In this document: piece by piece, positions 1-64,000 of the stretch | How positions within the stretch are numbered: position 1 is the first letter of the stretch | How the letters are laid out: each line of letters begins with the position of its first letter | Virus record (IMG/VR): IMGVR_UViG_3300028920_000023 | DNA from: a virus | Taxonomy: Duplodnaviria > Caudoviricetes | DNA: 64,000 nucleotides | Strand: one strand, 5' to 3' | Made by a program: the position numbers and the translations under genes | Notes under the pieces: model-generated | Seen by the model: the letters and a program-made list of their open reading frames with translations, nothing else | What the model was told of the DNA's origin: nothing | The model's database searches: none

Positions 1-132
1 CTTATCTTCCATCCAACCTAACAGATTATCAAGGTCCCGCAACCCACTATCAGAAGCAGCAACCTCATCAATCGTCTTGCCCTTATTATCACCAAAAGGG
101 ATCCTAAAATTTTTAGCCTGTTTGAAAGTCAT
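1..132 (-). CDS. Partial hypothetical protein with a PFGxxKG motif (DUF3820-like), running off the window edge
   Basis: Not in the ORF track. ATG at 132 overlaps the TGA of 129..377 (ATGA); reads MTFKQAKNFRIPFGDNKGKTIDEV... and is open to base 1. Confidence 0.55.
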   Translation of the reverse strand, partial: MTFKQAKNFRIPFGDNKGKTIDEVAASDSGLRDLDNLLGWMEDK

Positions 133-377
133 CCAAAAGACCTCGACACCTTAGGTTTAGGACTAGGAGAAACTGATTTGGGCCTGGACAAACCACTACG
201 GTGTTCCTCAATTATCTTAGCTAATGTTTGCCCTTCATCATAGGACACATTCTCACCTTTTTTCTTGAACCTCTCGCACAACTGCTCCGCATTAAGGGTG
301 TCCCCCAATTGACCACACATCTTCTTCGCTCTTACAGCAAGCGCTTTCATCCTCGGCGTCAAATCCCCACTCGGCAT
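129..377 (-). CDS. Hypothetical protein
   Basis: 82-aa ORF coupled to the next gene by an ATGA overlap. Confidence 0.55.
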   Translation of the reverse strand: MPSGDLTPRMKALAVRAKKMCGQLGDTLNAEQLCERFKKKGENVSYDEGQTLAKIIEEHRSGLSRPKSVSPSPKPKVSRSFG

Positions 378-1056
378 AATCTTGTCCTTTCATCAAAAAC
401 TTGTTAATCCTCATTTTTCTAAGGAACTCAACAGACCACTCCCCAAGCCCGAAATTGACCCCATAAAAACTCACATTATCATCCACACAACACTTAGAAA
501 TATAACGATCAATAACAGCATTAGTCTCAAACTTACACGTAGGAAAAACATCCACAGCCTCATCAGGTCTCAGATAATCTATAGAAACATCCCCAGAATG
601 ACCACGAGCATGCTCACATTGTAATAAAGCACTCAGATATGGGGCATGCGGTACCACATAATGTGAACCAGGATGACAAGACCTAGAGACCGTCTGTAAA
701 GAATCTAGCACCACATCATCAGCATAAACCAGCCCGTTATCAGACCGCAACAATTCTCTAAAGCTAACACCAGCACAACAAGTGGAAATAGTCAACTTCA
801 AAAGACCCTCTCTATCATAATTAAGAAATTCGGATAACCTGATGTAAATCAGTATCGTCGGACCCATACGGGTTAACGTAGAAGCCACACACTTAACACG
901 GCGGTCATAACTCCCATTAAGGAATTTCGTATTCCAAGATGATGGCATGAAAATAATGTTTTTGACCGGAGATGGCGGCACAGGACAATGTACAACTTTA
1001 ACAACTTGATCTGAGAATTCATCCCAGGTTCTATCCATCCATTGTTTCGGTTTCAT
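292..1056 (-). CDS. Hypothetical protein
   Basis: 254-aa ORF co-oriented with neighbours; no recognisable motif. Confidence 0.65.
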   Translation of the reverse strand: MKPKQWMDRTWDEFSDQVVKVVHCPVPPSPVKNIIFMPSSWNTKFLNGSYDRRVKCVASTLTRMGPTILIYIRLSEFLNYDREGLLKLTISTCCAGVSFRELLRSDNGLVYADDVVLDSLQTVSRSCHPGSHYVVPHAPYLSALLQCEHARGHSGDVSIDYLRPDEAVDVFPTCKFETNAVIDRYISKCCVDDNVSFYGVNFGLGEWSVEFLRKMRINKFLMKGQDYAEWGFDAEDESACCKSEEDVWSIGGHP

Positions 1057-2092
1057 ATTGTGCCTCTAAATCTTCCATTTCGTAAACATAATCACGTTGA
1101 GCCCTTCTAATATCACTCTCGAGCCGTTCCTCATCCGCTCTTGCTTGTCTCTCTTCTTTTCTAGCATTCACATCAATAATTACATGCTTCTTAAGAACAG
1201 AATCATCAACCTTTTGCGGAGCTGGCAGACTCATAGCAGGATTCAAACGTTTAAACAAAGTGGAAATAGCATTCTCATTCTGCATCATCTCCAGAACTTC
1301 CTGCACAGTGGGAATCGATTCCAATATCTCCTTTGCTTTGGAGCGAGTCAACCTCCCAGTTGTAACCAATTCCTCTGTAGCCCTATTCTCAGCGTCATTA
1401 ATAACATGTTTTACTCTATCCTTGCCTTGCTTCAGGATACTGGTCTGCATCCGGACTTTGTTTTCGATCTCCATTTCCTGTTCTCTACATGCGGCATATT
1501 GCTGTTGTAGATCAGATCGTTCTTTGATCAAGTGAGAGGCCAAATCCTTCTTTATAGAATTAACAACATCAGCCCTCTGTTCACGCAAAGCTTTCTTCTT
1601 CTGAGTCTTTTCCTCAAACAATCTCTTAATCTCTTCCTTGTGCCTTTCTTTCATTTCCTTCTCTTTACGTCGATATTCGTCATCCACATCGGCAAGCTGA
1701 ATATCTATCTGCGTAGTAGCTGATTCCTGGTGTTTCTCCACCAAATCGTCTATCTGGGAATCTTTTCTGGTTATAATGTCTTTTAATTGCTCCGATGTCA
1801 GCGTCAACCCAGCCTGGAGCCTAAGGCGATCCTCCAGTGTACTGGTTCCTTCTAGTTCATCTGACAAGGCCTTTCGAATGGTGTCTGCTCTGCTTTTTAT
1901 GAGGGATTTAAGTTGGTTTCTTTCCGTAGTGGAGGTTATAACTTCTTCTTGTACTTCCTGTACTTCCTGTACTTCCTGTACTTCCTGTACTTCCTGTACT
2001 TCCTGATCACCAGTACATTTCTTTTGATGATTTGTTAGAGCGAACTTCTTACTAAACGACCTATTACACTTATCACATACGAATTCAGACAT
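1031..2092 (-). CDS. N-terminal classical-type zinc finger (CCHC variant) plus coiled-coil protein
   Basis: CDKCNRSFSKKFALTNHQKKC fits C-x2-C-x3-F-x5-L-x2-H-x3-C; followed by a QEV repeat and a long coiled-coil-like region; AGGAG SD upstream. Confidence 0.75.
   Translation of the reverse strand: MSEFVCDKCNRSFSKKFALTNHQKKCTGDQEVQEVQEVQEVQEVQEVQEEVITSTTERNQLKSLIKSRADTIRKALSDELEGTSTLEDRLRLQAGLTLTSEQLKDIITRKDSQIDDLVEKHQESATTQIDIQLADVDDEYRRKEKEMKERHKEEIKRLFEEKTQKKKALREQRADVVNSIKKDLASHLIKERSDLQQQYAACREQEMEIENKVRMQTSILKQGKDRVKHVINDAENRATEELVTTGRLTRSKAKEILESIPTVQEVLEMMQNENAISTLFKRLNPAMSLPAPQKVDDSVLKKHVIIDVNARKEERQARADEERLESDIRRAQRDYVYEMEDLEAQYETETMDG
1951..2004. repeat. 9-bp tandem repeat (gtacttcct)x6 encoding QEV repeats
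   Basis: Six perfect copies, in frame within 1031..2092. Confidence 0.95.
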
Positions 2093-2142
2093 GCTTATCT
2101 CCTAGCATTTCGGCTGATGGGCATTTGTATCTGAGTGTTTCT

Positions 2143-2391
2143 TTATTTAAAGTTATAACGCCCAGGCGTTTTTCTTGACGGGGTCACCGGGCTTAATTTC
2201 CTGGATCTCAATATCGAAGCTATCGGTATTATGCTTTTAGCGAAGAACAGAGCTTGTCTTTTACAGTATGTCTTTAATTCAAATCCCTTTGTGCTCTGTA
2301 AAATGACAACATCTTCTTTATTCGTTACCGACCAATGCCAGTTATTATCTTGTCCGACATAGATCTTAATCAGATCCTTTTTTCTCTGCAT
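2143..2391 (-). CDS. DUF1508/YegP-like small protein
   Basis: KIYVGQDNNWHWSV...ILQSTKGFELKTYC resembles the YegP repeat pattern. Confidence 0.5.
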   Translation of the reverse strand: MQRKKDLIKIYVGQDNNWHWSVTNKEDVVILQSTKGFELKTYCKRQALFFAKSIIPIASILRSRKLSPVTPSRKTPGRYNFK

Positions 2392-8120: not shown

Positions 8121-8133
8121 ATAATTGACGATA

Positions 8134-10272: not shown

Positions 10273-11926
10273 AATATTCTGTAGACAATTTATGATGATT
10301 CAAAGGAGAAAGCTCAACAATATCACAATCATATCTATCACGAATCCAATCACGAATATGTCTATCAACATGTAAAACAATCTTACGACCAGTATTACGT
10401 TTAATTAAACCACCAATAAAATTCTCACACCAATCCTCGAATCCTCCGTAATCAACACCATCTAAATAATCTTCCTTGTCATGAAAAGGAGGAGAAGTAA
10501 ACAAAAAATCATAATCAGACCAATCCAGATCTTCCCATCTAGATCCAAATAATGAAAAAGAAAATTTCTTCTTTGAAGACAACCACTCACCTAAATTAGT
10601 AAGATTCTCATAAGTATTAGGGTCAGTACCAACATACTCAATATTACCCAAACAAGAAGCAATTAACCTATTACCCCACCCAGCACAAGGATCAAACCAC
10701 CGACCACGTAAACCAAACTTCTCGATAACAGCCAAAATAACAGGAACACTCAACAAACTAGCCCTACTAAAACCCGCAAATAACAATTCCCTAACAAACC
10801 TAGACGGATACAAGCGCCTATTGGGAATTCCAAAAAAATTCTTACAAGCCCTACTAACCATCTTAGGATATTTAGATAAATTAGCAACAGCAGGACCATT
10901 CCTAGAGACGCACCAAATATTAGGACAAAAATCCAAAACAATATTATTACCATAAGGAAAACTATTAACGATCTTATCATCCCTCAAATAAGAATTCAAA
11001 TCAATCTTATTGAGCTTTTCAAATTCAGCATCAATATCATATCTCGGATTAATCCAGCCGGACTTAACCACGAAACCACAAAACACAGAACGAACAGCCT
11101 CAACCTCCACAATCTCATTCGACTTCATATCGAAAGAAAAATCTTGAATATTACGGAACCTAAACGAACCACAAACAACAAACCTAGACCTCTTTCTAAC
11201 AGAAAAAACACTACAATCAGAATATAACCAATCACCAATCAGTTTAACCTGCCTATTCCCACACCACCTGATAAAACATCTAGAACTACGAACCTTAACC
11301 CCATTCCTAGAAACACCAACATTAAAACAAACAACATCCTCTACAACACTCAACGCACCACCAGAAAACACAACAACGGCACAAACAGAACCATTGCTCT
11401 TAGATCTCAAACAAACACGACCACCACCATCAAATAACCCACGAACAAAATGACGAATCAAATCAGAAGGAACAACATCAAACAACCCAGAACCACCACC
11501 ATCCCTCCACTTCAGCAAACCATGACCAACCAGACAATCAGACATAACAACGCTATTAAAAACAACACCACAAGAACCATTAGAAAAATGAACCTTACCC
11601 TTATACTTAATATCAGAAACGAATCCACGTATAACACACTCATCCCTGACAGGTAAAAAGAAACGAACAGACCTCCTAGAACCAGCAGACTTAGCCAAAC
11701 AACCACGAGAAGCCAGAAAACCTAACCAATAAGCCTTCCTTTCACAATCAATAACATCAAAATAATGATCATCTACATCAACCTTAACGCCAGAAGAAGA
11801 CCCAGAAAGAGACAAAACCCTCATCCTACGTCTGACCGTAGATAAACTAATGCCAAGCTCAGAAGCAATCCTCTTTTGAGAAAACTTCTTCTTATATAAA
11901 CCAACAATAACATCATCTCGATTCAT
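10256..11926 (-). CDS. HTH + degenerate LAGLIDADG + amino-DNA methyltransferase fusion
   Basis: SQKRIASELGIS HTH; KAYWLGFLASRG and HFVRGLFDGGG (LAGLIDADG motifs lacking the catalytic Asp); motif I FDPCAGWGNR and motif IV FTSPPF. Confidence 0.75.
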   Translation of the reverse strand: MNRDDVIVGLYKKKFSQKRIASELGISLSTVRRRMRVLSLSGSSSGVKVDVDDHYFDVIDCERKAYWLGFLASRGCLAKSAGSRRSVRFFLPVRDECVIRGFVSDIKYKGKVHFSNGSCGVVFNSVVMSDCLVGHGLLKWRDGGGSGLFDVVPSDLIRHFVRGLFDGGGRVCLRSKSNGSVCAVVVFSGGALSVVEDVVCFNVGVSRNGVKVRSSRCFIRWCGNRQVKLIGDWLYSDCSVFSVRKRSRFVVCGSFRFRNIQDFSFDMKSNEIVEVEAVRSVFCGFVVKSGWINPRYDIDAEFEKLNKIDLNSYLRDDKIVNSFPYGNNIVLDFCPNIWCVSRNGPAVANLSKYPKMVSRACKNFFGIPNRRLYPSRFVRELLFAGFSRASLLSVPVILAVIEKFGLRGRWFDPCAGWGNRLIASCLGNIEYVGTDPNTYENLTNLGEWLSSKKKFSFSLFGSRWEDLDWSDYDFLFTSPPFHDKEDYLDGVDYGGFEDWCENFIGGLIKRNTGRKIVLHVDRHIRDWIRDRYDCDIVELSPLNHHKLSTEYFVEIL

Positions 11927-12653
11927 AATTATCCCTAATAACAGAAAGAAAAGACAAAAACTCAGAATCAGACCTACGCTTCTTAGCCCTATTCAAGGCT
12001 CTAAGAACCAACCTCACATTACCAATAACATGACCAACATCATTATCAACCCTATCAACAGACAAAGACAAACAAGGATGTCTATAACAACACATCCTAA
12101 TACCAGACAACGTACATCGTCCACCCTGTTTATCAAACAAATCCAATAAAAAATCCGTCGTCAAATCAGAATCCTCACCACGCATAACATTCCTTCTTAA
12201 AGAAGAAACGAAATCTCTAGAAACACAATCATCAGGAACAAACAAATCAGAATTAATCAAACAATCAACCAAAAACAATAAATCCTCAGTAGAACCCGTA
12301 TTACGAGCCAAATTCAAACCCATACAAATTAATTGAATATTACCAATAATATGACCAACATCATTATCAATCCTATCAATAGAAACAGAAAACAAAGAAC
12401 CATCATATACAAGCGGGGTATTAGAGACACAACACCGACCGTTATTCTTATGAAATAATTCTAGAACATATTCTCTATTAATAGAGAAATCTCTGCCTTT
12501 CTTACGATCCTCAAATTTAGCCGTACCAAGACATCTAGTAATATAATTATTCAAAGAAGTTTTATATCTATTAGAATCCCTATAAATCTGAGAAGCATTA
12601 CGCCGTGATCTACTTTTCTTTACATAACGTCTATTTCGTTCTTTCCTGTCCAT
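11913..12653 (-). CDS. Tandem HNH/His-Me finger endonuclease-like protein
   Basis: Two repeats: SIDRIDNDVGHIIGNIQLICMGLNLARN and SVDRVDNDVGHVIGNVRLVLRALNRAKK. Confidence 0.7.
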   Translation of the reverse strand: MDRKERNRRYVKKSRSRRNASQIYRDSNRYKTSLNNYITRCLGTAKFEDRKKGRDFSINREYVLELFHKNNGRCCVSNTPLVYDGSLFSVSIDRIDNDVGHIIGNIQLICMGLNLARNTGSTEDLLFLVDCLINSDLFVPDDCVSRDFVSSLRRNVMRGEDSDLTTDFLLDLFDKQGGRCTLSGIRMCCYRHPCLSLSVDRVDNDVGHVIGNVRLVLRALNRAKKRRSDSEFLSFLSVIRDNYESR

Positions 12654-12901: not shown

Positions 12902-14440
12902 TTACAGATTAGAGACAGTGACAGTTCCGTAGTATAAGCCACCATCCTCGATAAGTTTCTTACCGTAACGGGTCATGATGCCCTTATTCGGCGTGAAGCT
13001 ATTCGGGTCAAGAACCGTCGGCGTACTCAGCAGCGGAATATACGGCGCATAGAAATAACCGCTATCCAGCACAGAATTACCCTTGAAGCCCATCAGGATC
13101 TTACAATTCGGGAACAGAGGATCCTTGTACAGACGCAGCTTGCCCTGGATCGTACCCGCAGAAGTGATACCAATATCGATACCATCCTGCGCCAGAGCAT
13201 CACTACCACGGAAATCATTCAGCTGCTCAAACTTGCTGGCGATATCCGCAGACGTCACCATCCAGTTCGCCGGACCACGGAGCGTAGTACGATGAATGAT
13301 GTTCGCAACCTCAAGGACCTTGTACAGCAACGCAATGTTGCGATCCGTGAAGTTAACCGAAGCACCAGCAGCCGTGCCAAAATTATGCGTAGCACGAATA
13401 CTAGAAGCGATAATCAGATCGTTAATAATTTCACGATCGATCTCCGCAACCATCTCATCCGCCATCAGATCCGTCAAGGTGCCCTCAGCGTCGATATTAT
13501 GAACCGACTTAAGGTCCTGAGCAGCTTCCAAAGACCACGTGGTCTTCAACTTTCGAGCCACAGCACTCACCGAATCACTATCAATCGAGAGAGTGATCTC
13601 GGGCTGGAACGGGTTGTTCTCCAAATCGTACTCATAATCCGCTCGGACGATGGCCGTATCCGGAAGAGTACCGCTCGCCAACGTGATCACAACCTCACCA
13701 GTCTGGTGATTGAACGCCGTCGCACCACTAGTCGAAACATCAACCTCGACCGACGGACAATTCGTGTTGTCACCAGCAAACACGTTCTCGACTTCACCGG
13801 TGCTGTCAAAAGTGACCTGCAGACAGGGTTCTGCATCTTCACAATTGTCATCATCTTCGGCGTAGACGTTCACGAGCACCGTGCCGGCGAGAATCGGCTT
13901 ATGAATCAGCGTGCCGCGAATCACCGTACCACCGCTCTCGATATCAAGGCTTTCACCCTTTACCGTCTGAGAGCTGTAGTAAGGATCAAGTGCCCAACCA
14001 TTCTGACGGCTGAACTGCTGCGCCGTATTCTGACGCATGATCTGCGTACCGGCGAGCGTCTGACCCTTATTCAGAGCATAGCGGTACCTGATGTAGAAGA
14101 TCAGGCTTGCGGGGCTGCTCATGGGCTGTACACCGACAAGGTTATCTGCGATCAGTCGCGGATAGCTCTTGCGGATGAGGGGAAGGGCAAACCGGGTAAA
14201 GTCGGCGATGTTGCCGGTGGTGGTCGCTTCTTCCATTATCGGCGTGGAGTTGGCTTGGTAGCCATGCTGGTTTTCCATCATGGCCGCCATGAGGGCGAAC
14301 TTCGCGGGCTTGATTTCGGCACAGCGTTGCAGCACTGGTGCCCATTTTTCGACGAGTTGATTGCGTTTGGCCTCATGGATGAGATGGGCCTGGCGCTGTT
14401 GTCGTTTGCTTTCTATCAGGGTTGGTCTACCCGAACGCAT
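12902..14440 (-). CDS. gp23: Major capsid protein, T4 gp23-like
   Basis: LVGVQPMSSPASLIFYIRY, ARKLKTTWSLEAAQDLKSVHNIDAE and YFYAPYIPL are gp23 signatures. Confidence 0.95.
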   Translation of the reverse strand: MRSGRPTLIESKRQQRQAHLIHEAKRNQLVEKWAPVLQRCAEIKPAKFALMAAMMENQHGYQANSTPIMEEATTTGNIADFTRFALPLIRKSYPRLIADNLVGVQPMSSPASLIFYIRYRYALNKGQTLAGTQIMRQNTAQQFSRQNGWALDPYYSSQTVKGESLDIESGGTVIRGTLIHKPILAGTVLVNVYAEDDDNCEDAEPCLQVTFDSTGEVENVFAGDNTNCPSVEVDVSTSGATAFNHQTGEVVITLASGTLPDTAIVRADYEYDLENNPFQPEITLSIDSDSVSAVARKLKTTWSLEAAQDLKSVHNIDAEGTLTDLMADEMVAEIDREIINDLIIASSIRATHNFGTAAGASVNFTDRNIALLYKVLEVANIIHRTTLRGPANWMVTSADIASKFEQLNDFRGSDALAQDGIDIGITSAGTIQGKLRLYKDPLFPNCKILMGFKGNSVLDSGYFYAPYIPLLSTPTVLDPNSFTPNKGIMTRYGKKLIEDGGLYYGTVTVSNL

Positions 14441-14477
14441 TTCGTTTTCTCCTGCTGTGGTTTGTTTTCCCGAGCTG

Positions 14478-15158
14478 TTACTTCAGGTAAGCTGGACCCG
14501 AATCGATGCTTTTGGCAATTTCGTTAACTTGCGGATCGCTGCTAGTGAAGTTGCTGCTTCTTTTTACAGGAGCTGCCACAGCGTCCTCGTTTACCAATTT
14601 CTTCGTCTTGGGCTTGGACGATTCAGTCTTGACAACCTTTTTCTGGGGTCTTCCGACTGATTCGTTGATCTTGGGCCGTCTTGCCGTAAGCATCTTGTTT
14701 GCTTCGAGCAGTTTCTTTGCAAGGCCGTGACTTCGGCTTACTTTCTGCTCTAGGGCTTTTCTACCTTCCTCAAGTTTAGCAACCTTGAGGCGCAGCTTTT
14801 TGTTTTCCTCCACAGCCTGACCATCTTGGATGTCCAATTCGACGCCTTCGATCAATCGTTTGATGCCGGATAGCGTCTTGGAGTCCTTCGATTCGCCAAT
14901 TGCCGTTTGCTTCTGCGCTTCTCGTGTTACCGAATTAACCCGAGCCTCTAGGAAGATCTCTACCTTCCTAGCCAACTCGGCCTTATATTTCTCAGTACTC
15001 TCGATGCAGACTGCTTTCGCTTTCTGCAATCTATCCTTGAAAGTTTCTTCAAGCCGCTGTTCCTCAGACTTAACATAGCTCTCAACAGCCTCAATAAGAC
15101 CGTCGGCCATTTCCGCAGAACCACCCAGCTGCTTGACCAATTCTCGAATCTTATCCAT
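14478..15158 (-). CDS. Prohead scaffold/core protein (gp22 position)
   Basis: Coiled-coil protein between protease and MCP. Confidence 0.7.
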   Translation of the reverse strand: MDKIRELVKQLGGSAEMADGLIEAVESYVKSEEQRLEETFKDRLQKAKAVCIESTEKYKAELARKVEIFLEARVNSVTREAQKQTAIGESKDSKTLSGIKRLIEGVELDIQDGQAVEENKKLRLKVAKLEEGRKALEQKVSRSHGLAKKLLEANKMLTARRPKINESVGRPQKKVVKTESSKPKTKKLVNEDAVAAPVKRSSNFTSSDPQVNEIAKSIDSGPAYLK

Positions 15159-45122: not shown

Positions 45123-45166
45123 GATCAATTCTCCTAGTTCGGCATCAAACCGCCGTTAATCATACT

Positions 45167-45174
45167 TATATTTG
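45167..45174 (-). promoter_or_regulatory. Candidate late promoter CAAATATA upstream of sheath
   Basis: YAAANATA instance in the intergenic gap. Confidence 0.55.
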
Positions 45175-45212
45175 CAGAGACTTTTTAAGATGATTAACTA
45201 GGAGAAGTCATG

Positions 45213-45509
45213 TTATGATTCTAGGTTAGAGGTATCCAATATTACTCTGATCATTCCTCTTTTAGATAAGCGCTCGATTTGCGATTCCCATAATCTGTCT
45301 TTAACGACCTCGATATGCTGATTTGGTCGTATGGGCTTATCCACAGCACCTAAAAAGAAATCCACTCTCTTGCCGTCTTCTTTCTTTGGAGATCGGAGAT
45401 GGATGGTTACCAACTGCTTGGATGTGTTCAGTATACGAACAATATCAGCCGTTTCTTTCTTGGCTTTTCTGGCTTGCATTTCCCGTACTGTTAATGGTCT
45501 CTTAGCCAT
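45213..45509 (-). CDS. Hypothetical protein
   Basis: 98 aa, AGGAGGAG SD. Confidence 0.7.
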   Translation of the reverse strand: MAKRPLTVREMQARKAKKETADIVRILNTSKQLVTIHLRSPKKEDGKRVDFFLGAVDKPIRPNQHIEVVKDRLWESQIERLSKRGMIRVILDTSNLES

Positions 45510-46386: not shown

Positions 46387-46703
46387 TATTTCTTCCTATC
46401 AACGAGGTCAATGATCGTAGACTTCTTAGAAAGACGTTCAAAAGCAAACTTCACCGCCGAAGTCTGTTGCTCCACCTGCTGAGCCTTAGAACCAGACGGA
46501 TCCTGCTTGGTTTTCGGAATACCAACAGTCACACCGCTCGGCTTAAAACGCACTAGGGGCACCAACCTACCCTCTGATTTGGTTTTTATTGTCTGTTCTG
46601 CATCCTTGGCCGCAGACACAATGATCTTCTTTTTAAGATCTTTCATCTTAGCTGTAGCTAATCTTCGTATATCTTTAGTCGATTTAACAATTATTTTGGA
46701 CAT
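46386..46703 (-). CDS. Hypothetical protein
   Basis: 105 aa, AGGAGG SD. Confidence 0.7.
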   Translation of the reverse strand: MSKIIVKSTKDIRRLATAKMKDLKKKIIVSAAKDAEQTIKTKSEGRLVPLVRFKPSGVTVGIPKTKQDPSGSKAQQVEQQTSAVKFAFERLSKKSTIIDLVDRKK

Positions 46704-48835: not shown

Positions 48836-48844
48836 GGATTGTCC

Positions 48845-49459
48845 TTATCCGTCAGCTTGATTTGCCTTCGTAGGAAGAAGAGAAATGTCGCCACTGATAT
48901 TTTGAACCAAACAAGACCAGTAAAGCCAGCGATATTTGAAATTTCCTGTATCACTAGACTTAATAACCCTATAAGTATCAATACTATTACCCTTATCCTG
49001 CCTCAAATCCGTAAACTGGGTAACAGCTAAGGTATTATGAGGAACAATTAGAACATCACCCTCAGCAATCATCCTCCTACCAAACAACCTCAACACAGAT
49101 GCCCTAGAGAAGTGCACCGTAGTCTCATTCTCAACATCTACGCCCCACTTCTTGATCTCGATCTCAGCGGGCTCTGGCTCGAACATCCCCTTCAATTTTT
49201 TGGGGGCAAGGTATGTTGGATCAGCATCTTCTTCCCATACTTCGTCTCTACGATCTGATCTGGTTCTTGGATAGATTTCTATCCATGCTCCAGATATGTT
49301 CACGATCTCTTCGGCTTGTCTTTCTGCGAATGAGATATCCGGGCTACCATGGTTATAGGTAGAAAGTAGAGAATTTTGCTTTTCCTCATCAGAACGATAA
49401 TCGGGAAGATTATCCCTAGTATCGTATTGCTGATTAAAGTCGAAATTTATAATAGACAT
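48845..49459 (-). CDS. Neck/head completion protein, gp14-like
   Basis: AEEIVNISGAWIEIYPR...EVWEED...KKWGVD...IAEGDVLIVP; lies in the neck cluster. Confidence 0.65.
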   Translation of the reverse strand: MSIINFDFNQQYDTRDNLPDYRSDEEKQNSLLSTYNHGSPDISFAERQAEEIVNISGAWIEIYPRTRSDRRDEVWEEDADPTYLAPKKLKGMFEPEPAEIEIKKWGVDVENETTVHFSRASVLRLFGRRMIAEGDVLIVPHNTLAVTQFTDLRQDKGNSIDTYRVIKSSDTGNFKYRWLYWSCLVQNISGDISLLPTKANQADG

Positions 49460-49983
49460 CAGTAGAACTCCGCACTAAGCCTGCCCTGTGGATCAACAGG
49501 TTCAAGTGGGCCAGGAACTGGCGTCAAAGAAGCCCTCAGAGGATCATTTGGGATCAGATCCGGGTCTGGTGCTCTCCTGAGCGGATCTTCTGTGGTAACG
49601 CACCCCGTGAAGTTAGACCCTTCGCTACTGCACAGTGGGTCTTCCGGATTTTCTGGTTCTCTTACCTTGGCATTATCTTTCAGAATTTTGTACCAATCCT
49701 CGACACAATTCTTAGGACAAAAATTGCCGTTTGGGGGTGGTCCTTCCGGTAGTTCAAAAAAGATCCCGGTGCTATTCTGTCCTCTTGGGAGTAGAGTTCT
49801 AACCAATCTGGATCCTGGTATAAGCTCTAGTGCATCTTCGACTGGTATTATAGAGGCATTACAGTTGATGTTTCTACTTAGGGCTAGTCCTGTTAGACTG
49901 CTTGTGGGTTCACATCCTGGTACTTGTAGGACGTTTCCTGGTTTGACTTCTAGTTTGTTTCGTATAGTTATTGTAGTACTCAT
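49459..49983 (-). CDS. Hypothetical virion-associated protein (possibly leaderless)
   Basis: 174 aa; ATG 4 nt after CAAAGATA, no SD. Confidence 0.65.
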   Translation of the reverse strand: MSTTITIRNKLEVKPGNVLQVPGCEPTSSLTGLALSRNINCNASIIPVEDALELIPGSRLVRTLLPRGQNSTGIFFELPEGPPPNGNFCPKNCVEDWYKILKDNAKVREPENPEDPLCSSEGSNFTGCVTTEDPLRRAPDPDLIPNDPLRASLTPVPGPLEPVDPQGRLSAEFY

Positions 49984-49987
49984 ATCT

Positions 49988-49995
49988 TATCTTTG
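49988..49995 (-). promoter_or_regulatory. Candidate late promoter CAAAGATA
   Basis: 4 nt before ATG 49983. Confidence 0.55.
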
Positions 49996-49999
49996 AATA

Positions 50000-50521
50000 T
50001 TATCGGTAAGCTCCAACGCCTCTCTTGTATCGAACAATCCCCTGCGCAGTAGCACTAGGATTCATCAAAATCTTAGCAGCAATACCAAAATGAACATTAG
50101 ACTCAAGATCCTCAATCTCAATATTATCGCTCGGATCCACATCATTCTCTAAAAGAAAATCACGAATACTAGACAACTTATCATCCGTAAAACCATACAT
50201 CTGAAAAGCATTATTCTGAACCCTAATCCACCCCATCTCAATCATAGCATAATCACGTGGATCAGAACCATCCCTGAAAAACTCCACGGCTCTCTCATCA
50301 GCACCATTCTCCAGAAGCCACTCCGCAACCTCATCAGACAGAGGCTCCAGAGGTATAATTTCAGGCGTATCTGGATCATCCAAATCCACACCGAGAGCAC
50401 TGGATAAAGCAATCATCATATGATTATAATCACTAATATCCCCATCAGCAAAGGTCTCTTGACCACTATCATCAAGCCACCATTCGCCGGATATAGACTC
50501 AGCTATCTGCCACATGTTCAT
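50000..50521 (-). CDS. Hypothetical acidic protein (possibly leaderless)
   Basis: 173 aa; ATG 4 nt after CAAACATA, no SD. Confidence 0.7.
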   Translation of the reverse strand: MNMWQIAESISGEWWLDDSGQETFADGDISDYNHMMIALSSALGVDLDDPDTPEIIPLEPLSDEVAEWLLENGADERAVEFFRDGSDPRDYAMIEMGWIRVQNNAFQMYGFTDDKLSSIRDFLLENDVDPSDNIEIEDLESNVHFGIAAKILMNPSATAQGIVRYKRGVGAYR

Positions 50522-50525
50522 GTCT

Positions 50526-50533: not shown

Positions 50534-50568
50534 TTTATCCGAATCGTAAATAAGCTAGGAACAACGTT

Positions 50569-54046: not shown

Positions 54047-54048
54047 CT

Positions 54049-56308: not shown

Positions 56309-58003
56309 TTATCTAGGATCCACAGGAGGAACTTTGAAATTACCCTTCTCAAAAAAGAACTTCAGATCTAGATTACCGAGCGTGATCACCTCATTAAAAC
56401 CAACGCCAGGATTATCCGGATCAGCGATCTTATTAGTCTCAATAATATCATCAGCAGGACTGAAGATATTCGTATAAGAAACACCAGGAACATTCTGAAT
56501 CACATCATATAAATTAGACAAAAACATCCCAGTACCCATCTCAAAATTATTAATATTGAAGAAATCACGAATAGCATCTTCAACAGCCACCTTGACAGTA
56601 CCAGAATCAGCATTCCGGCTCATAACAACACTAGCCTCAACATCAATAGGCTTAATAGCACCATCATAAATCCTAACCTCATCCGTCAAAACATTAATAC
56701 GACTGAAGAAATCAACCAAACCCCTCTTAAGCCCACTATTAGGTCTGACAGGAGTCTGATCAGGACCCTCAGCAAGAGCATAAACCTCCACAATATTCCT
56801 ATTCACGAAATCATTCTGAATAATAGCAACACCTTCTGCAACAGAAGGAGCAGCCTGCACAGCCTTTACTACAGAATCAAAATCCTGATCAACACCCGTC
56901 CTGAGAGTACCAATAGCCTTAGAAACAGAACCAAAAACCGGATGTGTAAAATTCTTAGCTAAAATACCATAATCCTCACTAGTAACAGCATTCTCCTGCG
57001 TAGAGAACTCTCTAGGAGCACGCCTTTTAGCCTCCTCAACCGTCTCAGCATCAGTACCACCAGAAGACGGATTCGGATTCCTAAACAAAGCCTCAACAGC
57101 AGCATTATAAGGAGCATCAGGAATAACTGGTCTAGTATCGTTAATAGCACCAGAACCAATACGACCACGAATACCACCACCAGTACGATACCTAACCGTA
57201 ATCTCCTGGCCAGTTAAAGGAGACTTACCAGCAATATCATTGCCAAATCGAATCCTAGAGCTATTCTCCAGATGAATAACCTCGTATACCTCCTCATCTG
57301 CAGAAGCTTTCTCTAGGATATCGACCCTGCGCCATACAGACACTTCAGAACCAGTTCTAACCTCAACCCTAATCGGTTCATCAAGAACATTGCTTTGTTC
57401 AATCTCAATACTCTGATCTGTACCACCGGGCGAGCTAATAATGAGAGGAGTGCCGGTCTTACCCTCTATACCATAAGCTACAATGCCCTTCTTGCCAGCG
57501 GGTACAATTATATCCGAAGTAAAATCGCCCGGAGCCCTAAATATCTCATATGTCAAAGGCTGGTTATCCGGACCTCTAATACTAAAGCTAGTGCCAGCGG
57601 GGACTTTAATCTCAGTCGGCAGAGGAGAATCTATGGTAATCAGCACATCCACCGTAGCTGGGGTAGCTCTCTGGATATCTTGGTTGATTAACTGAAGGTG
57701 ATTGGATACGGCTTCTCTTGTCTGGGCCGTCGGCAGGAACGATTCGTCCACAAGAATGTCTGCACGTTGTGATAAATTACCGCCTATAAAAGACAGTAAT
57801 TCAAGAAGCATAATTATACCATTATTAGCTACATAATCATTAAAGTCATTCGGATAATACGTTCGTAAGTATTCGATACCAGCTCTGCGGAACGCCTCAA
57901 AATCAAGCGCGGAATAATCCAGCCTACGCAGCTCCGCAGGATCTAAAACGACACCGAATTCCTCCGGAGCATTAGGAAGTTTAAATAAAACATTCTCAGC
58001 CAT
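56309..58003 (-). CDS. Baseplate wedge subunit (gp6/J-like)
   Basis: LDYSALDFEAFR...DYVANNGIIMLLELL...ESFLPTAQTRE, IRFGND, SSGGTDAET.EE.KRRAP...AVTSEDY. Confidence 0.88.
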   Translation of the reverse strand: MAENVLFKLPNAPEEFGVVLDPAELRRLDYSALDFEAFRRAGIEYLRTYYPNDFNDYVANNGIIMLLELLSFIGGNLSQRADILVDESFLPTAQTREAVSNHLQLINQDIQRATPATVDVLITIDSPLPTEIKVPAGTSFSIRGPDNQPLTYEIFRAPGDFTSDIIVPAGKKGIVAYGIEGKTGTPLIISSPGGTDQSIEIEQSNVLDEPIRVEVRTGSEVSVWRRVDILEKASADEEVYEVIHLENSSRIRFGNDIAGKSPLTGQEITVRYRTGGGIRGRIGSGAINDTRPVIPDAPYNAAVEALFRNPNPSSGGTDAETVEEAKRRAPREFSTQENAVTSEDYGILAKNFTHPVFGSVSKAIGTLRTGVDQDFDSVVKAVQAAPSVAEGVAIIQNDFVNRNIVEVYALAEGPDQTPVRPNSGLKRGLVDFFSRINVLTDEVRIYDGAIKPIDVEASVVMSRNADSGTVKVAVEDAIRDFFNINNFEMGTGMFLSNLYDVIQNVPGVSYTNIFSPADDIIETNKIADPDNPGVGFNEVITLGNLDLKFFFEKGNFKVPPVDPR

Positions 58004-59453
58004 ATAATTCCTTTACAAATCTTATTCTTCTTCCAGTGTATATTTTTCTATATCCGAACTTTACTGCAAAATCTGATTCTTTCATCCTTATCGATCTAGC
58101 ATGAACATATAAAGTTTTCTTATGTATAATATGCCCGTTGGAATCTACATACCAATAACTAGGCTTGTTACAACCGTCTTCCATCCATCCAGACGCTTTA
58201 TAAATGGTCCCCAAATGTTGGAAGGCCTCATCAGAAAATGCCAATAGATATTTCACATATGTTCTGTTCTTTTTTATAAACTTCACACATCTGGACAAAA
58301 ACCAAGACGATAAATTATGAGAATAATACCCAGGATTAAGACAGAATTTATTTAATTCTAATACCTGGTGAGGCTCTGCCCCTAACCTATCAGCGCTCTC
58401 TTTTCTAGTAATCGAGGAAAAAGAAGATACACCAATAAGTATAGTACGATGATAAATTCCAAAGTATGTTCCTCCTCTCCCACCTTTTGTCATATAATGA
58501 TACTTCGATAAAAATTCATCGCCCTCCTTACGATTAATTACGCAGAAATTTATAGATTCCTTGTCAATATGTCTTATTTCCTCCGTCTTTCCCAAGATTT
58601 CGAATATTCTATCTCTAATTCTATTCTTAGCTAAGAATTCGTGTTCCCATAATATCAACAAATCGTAATCCTTCGCCAATTTCTCATTATAGAACTTCAT
58701 AAATTTCTTATCTTTCTCAACCCGTTCCGGTATAAACCTGTGATGGTAATCTCCATTTACGAATATAATACACGGCCTATCGGACAAGATCATCGCATCA
58801 CATCTATAAGAACCAAAAGATAATTTTCTAATATCTTCAGGCTCCTTATAATATTCTAAACCTAAATCATCTAGTATCGAATATAAAATTAATTGATTAG
58901 AACTGATCCAATTGTGGTTGTTGCTTATTCTTTCCATCCCAGAAAACCAAGCTTCTCTAAATTTTTTAGTTCTCCATAATTCTTTCATCTTAACTGACGC
59001 AGATCTTCTCATCTCCTCTGTATAGGGCTTCCTCAACTTCATCTTTGCTGCTTTAACAGGATCACAATATGCTTTATTAACAGCATCGGATATTTTACGT
59101 CTAAAATCCTCGGTCACTAATGATAAAGACATTTTACGACTTAGTTCGCGGTTTTCCTGTCTACGCTGAGTAGAGGCCGAAGCACTGTGGGCATTCTTTC
59201 TTTGCTCTTCTGTAAGAGATAACAATTTCATAATACTTTTACTCTTATCAATCTTACTAATCATATTGTGTCTATATTTCTCATCTTTCCATAGTCTCTT
59301 TAAATTCTGGGAATTTTTATTTCCTATTTTCTCATACATACATTTTCTGCAATTTTTCGTACCTTTCGATCTTCTATTATATAGAGCCCTCTTAGTTAAC
59401 TCGATATTCCTATTGCAATTAGGGCAAGAAATAATCACCTTCTCAGACATCAT
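57996..59453 (-). CDS. Zn-ribbon/helical repeat + degenerate Vsr/DUF559-like nuclease + Mom-like GNAT fusion (copy 3)
   Basis: CPNC...CRKC, LWKDEKYR; SYRCDAMI...IIFVNGDYHH...LWEHEF; YHYM...LELNKF...LAFSDEAFQHLGTIYKASGW; overlaps both neighbours. Confidence 0.8.
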   Translation of the reverse strand: MMSEKVIISCPNCNRNIELTKRALYNRRSKGTKNCRKCMYEKIGNKNSQNLKRLWKDEKYRHNMISKIDKSKSIMKLLSLTEEQRKNAHSASASTQRRQENRELSRKMSLSLVTEDFRRKISDAVNKAYCDPVKAAKMKLRKPYTEEMRRSASVKMKELWRTKKFREAWFSGMERISNNHNWISSNQLILYSILDDLGLEYYKEPEDIRKLSFGSYRCDAMILSDRPCIIFVNGDYHHRFIPERVEKDKKFMKFYNEKLAKDYDLLILWEHEFLAKNRIRDRIFEILGKTEEIRHIDKESINFCVINRKEGDEFLSKYHYMTKGGRGGTYFGIYHRTILIGVSSFSSITRKESADRLGAEPHQVLELNKFCLNPGYYSHNLSSWFLSRCVKFIKKNRTYVKYLLAFSDEAFQHLGTIYKASGWMEDGCNKPSYWYVDSNGHIIHKKTLYVHARSIRMKESDFAVKFGYRKIYTGRRIRFVKELYG

Positions 59454-60619: not shown

Positions 60620-62794
60620 TCAGTCGCAGGAAGTTATAACGTTCTCGTCTACTTCCTCAGGAGTATATTCGACAAACGCCCTATCCTCTGGCTTCCTCTT
60701 ATCCTGTTTGATCTCCTGCGGATCAAGCGGTGTATTTCCACTACCAGCTTCTTCTTGTGCGCCCCCACCAGGTGCAGCACCGGGAAGAAAACCATTCAAT
60801 TCAGGAGCATTCACAGCCACATCAGTATTAACACCATTACCAGCCAACTGCAAATGCCCAGAACCAGAAGACTCGAAATCTATATTAGAACCAGCTTTGA
60901 ATGAAATCCTGTTAGCAGCCTTAAATGCTATATTCCTACCAGAGACAATCTCGATATCCTGTTGACAATAAATCTGAATCTTACCATTCTCATTATTCCG
61001 GATAATAACTGTATCGTTCTTATCATTAATGACGATATACTGTTCTTTACCCTCTTTAGCCCTAAGAACACTTATACCCTCGTTCTTAGATAGCCATAAA
61101 CCACGATCCTCAATATCGACAACCTCAGTCCATGCACCATCCTGACCTACCCTACCATCACGAGCCTCCAAACCCTGGTTAATACCACCCTCCGCAGAAG
61201 CCAAACCAAGAGGCTCGTCTCTCCTACCATTATCTCCTCCGGCAGCTGTCTTTAGTCTAAGATAACCATTATGCTTATCTAACTTAAAATGATAAGTATC
61301 CTTCTCAGGTTCTTCCGTCATCGCTACCTTAGTAGCAAATTCGTTCTCTTCTAATTTCTTCCATTCACGAGATACCTCCGAGTCGGTATCTGTGCACGCC
61401 ATAATATAATCTTCTCTATCATTTAATTCTACGATCTTGGATTTAGGAGAATACCATCTTGTTGTATTTAATTCGTCTTTATCGATAGCTTCAAAACCAA
61501 AACCCCTCGCTGCTCCAGGGCTGTCCGTCCAGCTTCTTCTGGTTTTAAGCAGCCAGCCATTACCTCTGGGGAGTTCCTCTGCCTCAGCATCTGTTGGACT
61601 TGTCCCCCTATCATCTAATACAAACTTAAACCCATATCTTGTCACAAAACGCATCTGCCGAGAGTCACGTTTTGTCCAACCATGCTCTTCCTCTAAATCA
61701 CCCTTAGATCCTACTTCATCTATAAGTTTCTTCTTATAGAATTCATCCTCCGAGGGATGGAAACCTATGTCCATTAACTGGATCAGATGTCCACCTTTAG
61801 TTCTCCATTTCATCCATCTCTCATCAGATTTTGCATTTCTAGATAATATCCTCTGTGGGCCATACTCATCGGATCTACTGGTGCCACCTACGGCACTACA
61901 CCCGGACATCGATCCGCCTTGTTGCGCCCATCCTACGTCTCTCATTTCGAATTTATGACCAGCTCTAGTTAGAATTAGGTATTTTCTTTGGTCCTGCTCA
62001 TTAGAGTCTGGTTGATCTTCGTTCAATAGTCTAGTTAGGTATTTGCTGCGTTCTATTTCAAAATCCCGGTCTTTCTCAAAATCGCCTTCGAATTCTCCTA
62101 ATGATCCTTCTTTTTTCCAATAGTACCCCACATCTGATTGTAGAACCAATATTCCGTATTTGGTTACTTCTGTAACGTATTTCCTGTCTGGGTTGTTTAT
62201 TTCGGGTTTTGCGCCTATGTCGAAGTTTCGTCTGGCTATGGCGTCTGTGTCTGGATCGGCTGGTTTTATATCGTGTTCTACTGGGAAGTATCCTACGGAA
62301 CTTGCTATTTTGTAGTTTCCATAACGGTCTCTTTGGCCGTTTGACATTGGTCTGTAGTCTTTTGGTAGGTATTCTTGTAGGTAATCGTCTGGTGTTTCGT
62401 CGGCACTTCCGTCTAGTTTGAGTGCTAGTGGGCTTGGGTGATATATGGATTCTAGTGGGTATCGTTTTCTTCTTGTTCCAGATGCGAATCCGCACCAGAT
62501 TGGTCCGTAGGGGTGGTTTTTCTCCCAGGTTATCCAGATTATGTCGCCGATTATGGGGTGTGTCCAGGACCCGGCGTTTTTACCTCCTAGGTAGGGTGCT
62601 GGTATTGCCCATGGACATTCTGTGTTTCTGATGTCTTCGTCGTGTAGTTCGGGGCATTTGAATCTTACTCGGTATATCTGTAGTGGGTCGTTTGTGTCTA
62701 TAACTAGGGCGCGATACCAGCCTGGAAAGCGGTTGAATAAGTCTTTAACTCTATTCTGGTGGAATTTCCCCCATACTTGTCCTAGATTGTCCAT
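60620..62794 (-). CDS. Baseplate hub/spike protein, gp5/VgrG-like
   Basis: N-terminal OB-fold signature YRALVIDTNDPLQIYRVRF...WAIP...PIIGDIIWITWE; C-terminal beta-helix-like region. Confidence 0.8.
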   Translation of the reverse strand: MDNLGQVWGKFHQNRVKDLFNRFPGWYRALVIDTNDPLQIYRVRFKCPELHDEDIRNTECPWAIPAPYLGGKNAGSWTHPIIGDIIWITWEKNHPYGPIWCGFASGTRRKRYPLESIYHPSPLALKLDGSADETPDDYLQEYLPKDYRPMSNGQRDRYGNYKIASSVGYFPVEHDIKPADPDTDAIARRNFDIGAKPEINNPDRKYVTEVTKYGILVLQSDVGYYWKKEGSLGEFEGDFEKDRDFEIERSKYLTRLLNEDQPDSNEQDQRKYLILTRAGHKFEMRDVGWAQQGGSMSGCSAVGGTSRSDEYGPQRILSRNAKSDERWMKWRTKGGHLIQLMDIGFHPSEDEFYKKKLIDEVGSKGDLEEEHGWTKRDSRQMRFVTRYGFKFVLDDRGTSPTDAEAEELPRGNGWLLKTRRSWTDSPGAARGFGFEAIDKDELNTTRWYSPKSKIVELNDREDYIMACTDTDSEVSREWKKLEENEFATKVAMTEEPEKDTYHFKLDKHNGYLRLKTAAGGDNGRRDEPLGLASAEGGINQGLEARDGRVGQDGAWTEVVDIEDRGLWLSKNEGISVLRAKEGKEQYIVINDKNDTVIIRNNENGKIQIYCQQDIEIVSGRNIAFKAANRISFKAGSNIDFESSGSGHLQLAGNGVNTDVAVNAPELNGFLPGAAPGGGAQEEAGSGNTPLDPQEIKQDKRKPEDRAFVEYTPEEVDENVITSCD

Positions 62795-63111
62795 TATAAT
62801 AGCCTCATTACTGAATCCTTATTGGGGAATTGTATTGTTTCCCCTGCTTGTGGCCATCCTAATGTATTTAGTGGTCTGTTGAACATTGTGATTACCCAGA
62901 ATAGGGATGGTGTTCCGTAATATTCTTGTGATATTAGGTCTGGTCTTCCTTGGTTAATTTGGTCTATTTTGATGGTTGTTATTTGTTCGTCGTTGAGGTT
63001 TTTTCTTTCTAGTTCTGGTGGTCTGTTCCATAGTCCGAATGTTTCTTTGCCGTCTTTTATGACGGGTTCGGTGTCTTTAAATCTTGAGAATTCGCTGGTT
63101 AGTATAGGCAT
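62794..63111 (-). CDS. Baseplate wedge gp53-like / LysM-type protein
   Basis: GRPDLISQEYYGTPSLFWVITMFN...AGETIQFP. Confidence 0.8.
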   Translation of the reverse strand: MPILTSEFSRFKDTEPVIKDGKETFGLWNRPPELERKNLNDEQITTIKIDQINQGRPDLISQEYYGTPSLFWVITMFNRPLNTLGWPQAGETIQFPNKDSVMRLL

Positions 63112-63114
63112 GTT

Positions 63115-63660
63115 TTAGTACCATGTGAGTGCTGGTTTCTGGAGATTCTTGTTTATTATCTTAGGGTCACTTGTCTTGGTGGCTAGATTCGTGGCCAGCT
63201 CTAGTAAGACAGCTACCTTAGTGTAAAGCGGGTGTATTCCTTGGTTTTCTATAATTTCTGGTCCAAAAGTTATATTGACGTCCCTTATTCTAAATTGGGT
63301 ATTTTGCGGTATTGTCTTAGTATATCTTACCTGCACAGTAGGATAAATCCGTTTATTTTTTATTTCAAATTCGAAGAAATAAGATTTTAGTTTCTTGAGT
63401 TCTAAACCGACTTTTGAACAATTGAATTTCCTATCCGAGGCCAAATATTCCCATTCCATATTGACCCTTCGGCCTTGAGATCCCTTATGAATTCTCAGTG
63501 GTTCATAAGACCATTGTGGTACTTCCATCCATAAGGAACTGTTGTTCTCAGAAACTAGCTTAGGAGCAAATTGAAATTCTATGCGCTTAGAATTATACAA
63601 TTTAAACCAACATTGCTCAGCTAATTTCTTATCAAATTGTCTCAATGATGAGTCTGGCAT
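63115..63660 (-). CDS. Tail tube initiator-like (gp48/gp54/Pvc7-type) protein
   Basis: IEFQFAP...NSSLW...EPLRIHKGSQGRRVNMEW; located after the tape-measure candidate. Confidence 0.55.
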   Translation of the reverse strand: MPDSSLRQFDKKLAEQCWFKLYNSKRIEFQFAPKLVSENNSSLWMEVPQWSYEPLRIHKGSQGRRVNMEWEYLASDRKFNCSKVGLELKKLKSYFFEFEIKNKRIYPTVQVRYTKTIPQNTQFRIRDVNITFGPEIIENQGIHPLYTKVAVLLELATNLATKTSDPKIINKNLQKPALTWY

Positions 63661-63661
63661 T

Positions 63662-64000
63662 TTAGGAGACCCACTGATTCGCTTGGACAGTCAAACCCGA
63701 ACTCGTTTCTTGTTTTGCCTCCAAAAGATCCCTTATCGAGATCAGGATCTCGGCAACATCCTTGTTAGATGATTTGTTTGAAATGTCATTCAGCAAGGTA
63801 TTCGTTGTTTGAAGTTCTTTGTTCTCTTCTTTTGGTGGTCTTGCACTATCTTCATCTATTTTGACCTTCGCTACTTCATTTGGACGTGCTCTCATTTTCT
63901 CCGTAGCTTTTTCTGCTTCATTAACTTTACCCATAGCTTTATTTTTTTGGTTTTTCAATGCTTGTTCTGCTTTTACTAATTCTCTGCGCCATTGTTCTAG
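63662..64000 (-). CDS. C-terminal part of a large gene, possibly tape measure
   Basis: Frame of track ORF 63662..63958 stays open to base 64000; helical, low-complexity. Confidence 0.5.
   Translation of the reverse strand, partial: LEQWRRELVKAEQALKNQKNKAMGKVNEAEKATEKMRARPNEVAKVKIDEDSARPPKEENKELQTTNTLLNDISNKSSNKDVAEILISIRDLLEAKQETSSGLTVQANQWVS

Follow-up and report, generated by a model that had tools for sequence, protein, structure and literature searches.

Strand-bound amino/keto skew patches that flip inside late genes of an uncultured T4-like giant phage

Late genes and third-position skew

The 64,000-nt stretch of viral DNA analysed here (IMG/VR record IMGVR_UViG_3300028920_000023, referred to as the window) covers the late-gene region of an uncultured T4-like giant phage, a myovirus, and alternates along its plus strand between A+C-rich and G+T-rich patches that change sign inside genes. 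The sequencing runs that match it come from marine-sediment metagenomes, and the longest contig bearing its sheath protein measures 354,787 bp. Nearly all genes of the window are encoded on the minus strand. Among them are those for a gp23-type major capsid protein (12902-14440), a prohead protease (15188-16996), a portal protein with one intein that carries a LAGLIDADG domain (20101-23502), a large terminase with two inteins (24823-29127), the tail sheath (42267-45128, with the real start at the ATG at 45122) and a gp5-like spike (60620-62794), along with tube, baseplate and gp13-like genes. Loci compared with the window are designated by L-numbers (L001, L042 and so on), one of which, L084, belongs to the window's own genome. 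The keto skew, G+T versus A+C, is given here as K3 when taken at third codon positions and read on the coding strand, with K1 and K2 defined analogously for the other two positions.

A preliminary description of this DNA had proposed the alternating patches on the basis of hand counts, and all five of these counts proved exact for the 60-mers starting at 11461 (49/60 A+C), 43081 (41/60 A+C), 44581 (38/60 G+T), 60781 (39/60 A+C) and 62341 (45/60 G+T). Every flip that it named was recovered within about 100 nt by change-point segmentation, with borders at 19603, 24509, 29534, 32621, 43761-44166 and 49193. A local, strand-specific skew that flips inside genes, mostly at synonymous sites, is real. 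The plus-strand keto skew had a standard deviation (s.d.) of 0.163 in 300-nt windows, compared with 0.057 in shuffled sequence, and on all scales between 100 and 2000 nt it was more overdispersed than either GC content or purine skew. Over the whole window the (G-C) and (T-A) skews were positively correlated (r = 0.51 and 0.43 with window sizes of 300 and 150 nt, respectively).

Most of this variation resides at third codon positions. For 60-codon windows the s.d. was 0.39 for K3, compared with 0.17 for K1, 0.15 for K2 and a binomial expectation of 0.13, and 71% of the third-position variance fell on a single axis that sets A and C against G and T. Third-position compositions in such windows ranged from A.45, C.38, G.07 and T.09 at one extreme to A.05, C.06, G.30 and T.59 at the other. 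At 4-fold sites, stretches with G/T-ending codons contained A.06, C.09, G.19 and T.66, and those with A/C-ending codons A.52, C.32, G.07 and T.09, two compositions that are roughly complementary. All two-fold codon families flip, those of the C/T type as well as those of the A/G type (GAC/GAT, GAA/GAG, AAA/AAG and the rest), and leucine alternates between CTA/CTC from the CTN box and TTG/CTT.

The sheath gene illustrates the strength of the effect, with K3 values of -0.45, -0.83, -0.48, 0.23, 0.70, 0.80, 0.83 and 0.57 in its successive octiles; about 95% of codons 100-320 end in A or C and about 93% of codons 400-900 in G or T. When codons were shuffled synonymously within genes, the summed range of the cumulative sum (CUSUM) was 70.6 ± 2.0 compared with 133 observed (z about 31), a value that no shuffle reached, and for the sheath gene alone a CUSUM of 9.45 was obtained with a shuffle maximum of 2.53. 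The heterogeneity is thus far above that of shuffled controls, as the preliminary description had expected, but the two clean states that it envisaged were not found: K3 forms a broad continuum with a left tail, and a two-component mixture barely improved on one component (Bayesian information criterion 283.6 versus 292.4).

Given that every stop codon needs both T and A, two-letter stretches stay open in many frames, and the numerous shadow open reading frames (ORFs) of the window are explained by the skew, as had been suggested. One of them, 49592-49996 on the plus strand (134 aa), has entered the public record as a gene in the ENA and Logan contig gene calls, where it displaces the genuine gene on the minus strand (49459-49983), homologues of which occur in 52 related loci. 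This wrong-strand call arose because the flip in skew misled the gene caller.

The switch points are not assembly joins. Contigs from three runs bridge those at 43.9, 45.6 and 50.0 kb with zero differences and even depth, the exact sheath protein is present on nine contigs of the Logan, ENA and JGI assemblies, and these three independent assemblies agree with the window over 32267-55122 at 100%, 99.99% and 100% identity, respectively. Identical 151-nt contigs across 45512-45662 and 49103-49253 were furthermore found in a wetland metagenome of a separate study. Short contigs of a 2020 wetland metagenome match scattered parts of 44753-51364 at 95-100% identity and with few differences, so that the phage or a very close relative also lives outside the marine-sediment samples.

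Geometry of the flipped patches

Segmentation divided the window into about 39 segments with K3 from -0.76 to +0.81 and about 20 sign changes in 64 kb. The background consists of G/T-ending codons in the minus-strand genes, which makes the plus strand A+C-rich, and patches of 0.3-2 kb with A/C-ending codons lie within it. We refer to the latter, in which the plus strand is G+T-rich, as flipped patches.

The strongest flipped patch (44169..45619, core 44169-44931 with K3 -0.76) runs across two gene borders: according to the segmentation and a per-codon map it spans the last ~40 codons of gene 45502-46386, all of gene 45213-45509, the spacer that follows and codons 1-320 of the sheath gene. Directly upstream of it lies an intense G/T-ending block (45622..46569, K3 +0.76), and the two are separated by a sharp switch at about 45622-45643 with a step D of -1.1 to -1.16. 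At its other end the patch leaves through a gradual transition of about 400 nt inside the sheath gene (43764..44166, K3 about 0.10), the zone that contains the switch claimed at 43.9-44.0 kb, into the G/T-ending part of the same gene (42429..43761, K3 +0.76), where the plus strand is again A+C-rich. The sharpest switch of all (50030-50036, D = -1.5) is situated 30-50 nt before the start of gene 49459-49983; it joins the most intense G/T-ending block of the window (50033..50480, K3 +0.81) to a flipped patch (49196..50030) that is formed by this gene and the first ~88 codons of gene 48845-49459. Similarly, a patch at 62084..63130 (K3 -0.68) takes in a whole baseplate-wedge-like gene (62794-63111) as well as the first ~235 codons of the gp5-like gene, after which G/T-ending codons gradually come back (62081-61334, K3 0.02).

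Weaker or shorter flipped patches comprise the C-terminal extein part of the large terminase together with the first ~100 codons of the next gene (24512..26686, K3 -0.35; C-extein alone -0.39), the 5' part of gene 17008-20004 (19606..19918, K3 -0.43), gene 29691-30272 and its neighbours (29537..30682, K3 -0.23), the capsid gene's first ~120 codons along with the gene that precedes it (14081..15051, K3 -0.15), and the 5' end of a helicase-like gene (31151-32866) with the sequence upstream (32624..33250, K3 -0.10). The longest intense G/T-ending block extends over 10295..12399 (K3 +0.75), includes the 60-mer at 11461 and leaves the plus strand with about 75% A+C. Two large proteins of 712 and 556 aa with several sigma-70 region-4 or helix-turn-helix-like matches are encoded at 8134-11926 on the minus strand, the second of them within this block (K3 0.72-0.75). 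Outside genes, an intergenic tract at 38495-38638, upstream of gene 38240-38494, has a minus strand composed nearly entirely of G and T, with runs like TTGTTGTGTTTGTTGTTGTTTG.

The two edges of a flipped patch differ from each other. Read in the coding direction, G/T-ending codons give way abruptly to A/C-ending ones (D down to -1.5), while the reverse steps are gradual, with D never above 1.0. Of the 21 abrupt steps, 14 are no farther than 150 nt from a gene start, usually slightly upstream of it (29% by chance), whereas the return steps showed no enrichment at gene starts and are located inside genes. Downstream of the sharp steps K3 stays under the window mean for about 1 kb, and flipped patches recover over 0.3-1.2 kb in the direction of transcription; no start site behind this grading was identified. 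The earlier observation that 5' parts of genes end their codons in A/C and 3' parts in G/T holds as a general trend, with K3 climbing from 0.15 to 0.40 across genes.

Several organizing features that the preliminary description had suggested did not emerge from the window. A fixed period was not supported, since there was no spectral peak above a first-order autoregressive null and the autocorrelation was gone by about 1.2 kb. The T4 late promoter TATAAATA occurred 5 times with 4.4 expected and at none of the switches, hexamer enrichment upstream of genes yielded Shine-Dalgarno-like words only, and TATAAT-like words were not enriched near switches.

Dependence on DNA strand, residence time and lineage

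Whether the skew follows the gene or the DNA strand can be read from genes of opposite orientation. The plus-strand ORFs of the window have no Pfam match and no conserved homologue in relatives, and most of them score as shadows; the orientation test was therefore done on L084, which extends the genome 10 kb leftward and contains three opposite-strand ORFs (3959-4480, 8057-8566 and 9366-9779 in L084 coordinates). Their own-frame K3 values are -0.64, -0.81 and -0.78, which means that the same DNA strand stays G+T-rich there as in the flanking co-directional genes. These ORFs are open in the called frame only, have a coding-like amino-acid composition and carry the extreme skew at their own third positions; they gave no PHROG match and Pfam matches below threshold only. 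The most extreme G/T-ending gene that we found is also part of this locus, a 288-codon gene at 9816-10682 with K3 +0.94, K1 +0.45 and no family match.

Both the opposite-strand genes and the flipped patches have A+C-rich coding strands, and transcription alone can consequently not set the sign of the skew. The dependence on neighbouring bases points in the same direction: between A/C-ending and G/T-ending patches it agreed better when read on the opposite strand (r 0.73) than on the coding strand (r 0.24), with a bootstrap P of 0.96 for the mirrored correlation being the larger. Patches also continue across the borders of genes, and their 4-fold compositions mirror each other roughly. These data are best accommodated by a skew that is a property of the DNA strand and not of a programme of mRNA or codon choice.

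Within the skewed flanks several bland islands were observed that coincide with mobile inserts. The intein of the portal gene (21043..22720, minus strand, segment K3 0.07) has a K3 of 0.11 compared with 0.38 and 0.50 in the exteins, with which it shares mRNA and protein precursor. Two Mom-like genes, at 40414..42150 and, also homing-endonuclease-like, at 57996..59453 (both minus strand), each have a K3 of 0.17, between flanks of 0.71 and 0.63 and of 0.72 and 0.75, respectively. Bland mobile inserts in skewed surroundings indicate an imprint that depends on residence time, as predicted for mutational pressure; the strength of the imprint is set by residence time and not by position or expression. 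Bland islands thereby flag recently arrived mobile DNA, such as inteins and Mom-like genes, and may serve as a marker of residence time that needs no reference genome. A third Mom-like gene (23531-24826, minus strand) is not bland (K3 0.35). The three paralogues match PF25680 and phrog_1384 in addition to a homing-endonuclease PHROG, and their placement between conserved structural genes resembles that of free-standing mobile genes.

Base-modifying enzymes encoded in the window had been put forward as a possible cause of the skew. Such a role could not be demonstrated for the Mom-like, radical-SAM and UDG-family genes. Among relatives, patchiness and possession of a Mom-like gene do not go together, and patchy and bland relatives could not be told apart by the Mom-like, radical-SAM or UDG-family genes of their 20-kb loci. 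A UDG-family gene (37303-38064) and a radical-SAM gene (38639-39532), both on the minus strand, adjoin the tube and sheath genes of the window. Among 80 related loci the radical-SAM gene was seen in L004 only, which is one of the most skewed relatives.

The trait is unevenly distributed among relatives. The sheath gene has 191 relatives in IMG/VR, and its DNA-level search against 50,697 phage records gave zero matches; an exact 40-mer scan of IMG/VR was likewise without a match. Most of 77 related loci displayed binomial scatter only (s.d. 0.10-0.16), while the window (0.38) and L003, L004, L031, L008 and L042 (0.32-0.42) are patchy; L001, L005 and L006 are not, although they are similarly close. 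The occurrence of patchy and bland loci among similarly close relatives makes the trait evolutionarily labile, as is expected for a mutational regime. Conservation of switch points, which the preliminary description had raised as a test, was found in part: several patchy relatives share the A/C-ending patch at the sheath start, but most relatives lack the pattern. This patch is retained in L008 and L031 despite a gene inserted upstream, its extent varies among relatives, and in L004 the sheath gene is A/C-ended nearly throughout. In a weak form the trend is more widespread, K3 being lower in the 5' than in the 3' region of the sheath gene in 52 of 70 relatives. The K3 extremes of the window lie beyond those of every sampled relative, and capsid and gp5-like loci of relatives showed no general 5'-anchored pattern. 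Amino-acid replacements in the sheath protein that are specific to the window had no bias by patch type (p = 0.89).

One relative combines skew with repeats. L042 contains at 17604-21425 three tandem paralogous genes whose proteins are 84% identical; their first 300 nt are 90-92% identical and nearly purely A/C-ended, the rest has diverged, and the 3' parts carry 78-nt tandem repeats. This arrangement resembles a GRINS-like case of repeat plus skew (see below) within the phage family.

Candidate mechanisms and known systems

For an imprint that is real, synonymous, strand-bound, slowly accumulating and lineage-specific, we consider a strand-specific mutation bias of the deamination type, acting on transiently single-stranded DNA and with its polarity reset near gene starts, to have about an even chance of being the correct explanation. 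Among the readings offered in the preliminary description, a strand-specific mutational process at the DNA level fits best in view of the L084 genes, the mirrored sequence context and the bland inserts. What we infer here is the deamination chemistry, the passage through single-stranded DNA and the kind of event that anchors the patches. Deamination is much faster in single-stranded than in duplex DNA. In each stretch one strand would be driven towards G+T at free sites, its complement turning A+C-rich in consequence; the amino-to-keto changes would be the deamination transitions C to T and A to G, which are silent at almost all third positions. Over most of the region the driven strand would be the minus strand, whatever the gene direction, and in patches of 0.3-2 kb the plus strand.

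The background may reflect more frequent exposure of one strand, for example as the lagging-strand template of replication forks that move with the late genes. In the flipped patches the other strand would be exposed, with the sharp edge at the transcription-upstream (high-coordinate) end and a decay downstream, as if a polar event at fixed sites near gene starts uncovered the plus strand for a variable distance. Candidates for such an event are a nick or break in the minus strand followed by 5'-3' resection, as in the recombination-dependent replication of T4-type phages, or forks that run against transcription and halt at gene starts. A more specific and rather tentative version of this mechanism treats the skew map as a fossil record of where single-stranded DNA begins and how far it runs: fixed nick, break or fork-arrest sites near late-gene starts would launch polar resection or recombination-dependent replication, and some factor peculiar to the lineage, be it enzyme, DNA modification or lifestyle trait, would speed deamination to saturation of the silent sites. 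If this were true, start sites of recombination and replication could be read from sequence alone.

A number of observations weigh against the deamination mechanism. The sharp switches of the window carry no motif of a nick site, break site, origin or promoter, and the anchoring at gene starts is also compatible with selection. The opposite-strand ORFs of L084 are ORFans without homologues in a set of 5.8 billion proteins, number only three and lie outside the window, in which plus-strand genes are few and uncertain. The test for mirrored context reaches only about P = 0.04, one-sided, and the complement symmetry is imperfect, as A/C-ending patches hold relatively more C than the mirror predicts. 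No relative exceeds 75% amino-acid identity, so that saturation of the silent sites prevents any polarisation of substitutions; the C to T and A to G changes are deduced from equilibrium composition alone, and A/T and C/G transversions would give the same marginals. Finally, among 63 relatives the 5'-anchored patch of the capsid gene has counterparts in just 3.

The strongest rival is strand-biased repair or gene conversion, unlikely in our view but kept in play by the link of GRINS with gene conversion. Recombination heteroduplex or gap repair would proceed from fixed sites and be corrected with a preference for both base and strand, and conversion repeated many times would leave the skew behind, as might apply to GRINS, in which the same kind of skew is paired with gene conversion (PMC8256042). 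The DNA-level evidence given above for deamination and the geometry of the patches fit this explanation equally well, T4-like phages replicate by recombination, and the tandem paralogues of L042 with their 90-92% identical skewed 5' parts are suggestive of it. However, the window contains no repeat above 61 nt and hence no internal conversion partner, the genome-wide background skew of one strand is left unexplained, and we know of no repair system with the required combination of base and strand specificity.

Selection on the mRNA appears improbable. A+C-rich 5' stretches might leave the message free of structure, which would aid the loading of ribosomes or Rho or the escape from RNA-targeting factors, with the rest of the gene G/U-ending. 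The resets near gene starts, the rise of K3 from 5' to 3' and the lower 5' K3 of the sheath gene in 52 of 70 relatives are in line with this idea, as is the weak folding of A+C-rich mRNA: at equal GC, 120-nt windows fold at -11 kcal/mol when A+C-rich and at -26 to -27 kcal/mol when G+U-rich. Yet the folding of start regions (-30..+60) is no weaker than in synonymous shuffles (p = 0.45), opposite-strand genes have A/C-ending codons from end to end in obedience to the DNA-strand rule, and patches begin in the preceding gene, extend up to 320 codons and in the terminase occupy the 3' end of the gene. The portal intein is bland although it is translated in one precursor with the exteins, the pattern is missing from close relatives that have the same proteins, and the context profile is mirrored on the other strand. 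Selection for restriction evasion by loss of palindromes, another suggestion of the preliminary description, is not a likely driver either. Compared with genome-wide synonymous shuffles, patchiness removes just 5% of 4-bp and 9% of 6-bp palindromes, and shuffles within 40-codon blocks revealed no significant shortage beyond local composition (z = -0.2 for 4-mers, -1.8 for 6-mers and -1.2 for 8-mers); the small loss without additional deficit marks it as a by-product.

Still less probable is an origin by mosaicism, in which patches would have been imported by recombination from relatives of opposite skew. T4-like phages are mosaic, mobile inserts differ in skew from their flanks, and relatives vary widely, as the L004 sheath gene demonstrates. 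Against this, the nearest relatives of the sheath protein remain unchanged along all its segments, with similar identity in both patch types, the extremes of the window lie beyond all sampled relatives, and patches begin at the same gene-start-linked place in several lineages. Mosaicism would moreover merely shift the origin of the skew to another genome.

We consider it very improbable that the two codon usages are translational dialects tuned to a tRNA pool that includes phage tRNAs, A/C-ending codons forming Watson-Crick pairs with G34 or U34 and G/T-ending codons wobble pairs. The sole tRNA gene of the window, a tRNA-Thr with the anticodon AGT (A34) at 53975-54047 on the plus strand, opposite to nearly all genes, does fit ACT, the commonest threonine codon of the G/T-ending stretches (159/300). 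With the exception of arginine, A34 tRNAs are unusual in bacteria and phages. A switch in the middle of a gene, a bland in-frame intein and the opposite dialect in opposite-strand genes do not agree with such tuning, and this tRNA is more plausibly an adaptation to the skew than the source of it. Lastly, an artefact of chimeric joins or of strand-specific base-calling errors on modified DNA, for which one could cite the metagenomic nature of the contig and the encoded base-modifying enzymes (Mom-like, radical SAM, UDG-family), is hardly credible, as independent assemblies agree, bridging contigs are identical at the switches and the skew, unlike errors, keeps to the third positions of the reading frame.

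Full-text searches of the literature on keto skew and strand asymmetry in phages retrieved no description of such patches. Silent sites that consist to 90-95% of two letters and swap these letters in mid-gene are far beyond the replication and transcription skews described for phages, and the pattern suggests that a strand-specific process not described before acts on the DNA of T4-like giant phages. It also has practical consequences: long stop-free shadow ORFs mislead gene callers, host prediction based on codon usage is distorted, and the stationarity assumed in phylogenetics and in analyses of the ratio of non-synonymous to synonymous substitution rates (dN/dS) is broken.

Of the known systems, transcription-associated asymmetry, reportedly described by Beletskii and Bhagwat in 1996 and by Francino and Ochman in 1997 as an excess of C to T on the non-template strand, is similar in that the coding strand of most window genes is G+T-rich and that the skew resets near gene starts. 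It differs in that the sign is inverted in the opposite-strand genes and that it is the template strand which is G+T-rich in the flipped patches. Bacterial replication skew, with its G+T-rich leading strand (PMC3269016, PMC2099444), shares the excess of G over C and of T over A on the same strand and is likewise a property of the DNA strand, but it is weak, amounting to a few percent, and origin and terminus are the only places where its sign changes, whereas the skew of the window is near-saturating and flips at sub-gene scale. In vertebrate mitochondrial DNA, too, one strand is A+C-rich and the other G+T-rich; the asymmetry is strongest at third and 4-fold sites, independent of gene direction and similar in magnitude (85-95% of free sites), and deamination of single strands is its accepted cause (PMC3269015). 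Mitochondrial DNA has one genome-wide polarity and a smooth gradient from one origin, in contrast to the 20 or more flips in 64 kb of the window, whose onsets near gene starts are sharp.

Of what has been published, GRINS come closest. By definition they are repeats of >500 bp with >80% identity to a second copy in their own cluster or genome; they are associated with gene conversion and show positively correlated GC and TA skews (correlation 0.70 inside and 0.09 outside), strongest at third codon positions, in stretches of G+T or C+A (PMC8256042). Their skews switch abruptly within 1 kb inside working genes by a mechanism that is unknown, and amino-acid use is shifted only slightly, with Gly and Val against Pro, Thr, His and Gln (PMC8256042). 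The window shares the correlated skews (r = 0.43 in 150-nt windows), likewise most marked at third positions, and the GRINS skew threshold is passed by ten of its regions of >500 bp, which have same-sign skews of 0.2-0.5 and together make up 8.3 kb. It differs in that self-comparison by blastn of the window, which is a part of a genome of ~355 kb, finds one repeat pair only (12018-12078 and 12339-12398, inside gene 11913-12653; 61 nt, 88.5% identity). Since the defining repeat was not found in the window, we do not file the window as GRINS in spite of its skews. The window contains no paralogues; tandem paralogues with skewed 5' parts were seen in the relative L042. Moreover, the skew of the window is also a region-wide background bound to one DNA strand with flips anchored near gene starts, and its host is a T4-like phage instead of an actinobacterial polyketide synthase cluster. 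If the fossil-record version of the deamination mechanism were correct, GRINS and the phage patches would have one common mechanism. The existence of close relatives with and without the trait provides a comparative route to the responsible gene that is relevant to GRINS as well.

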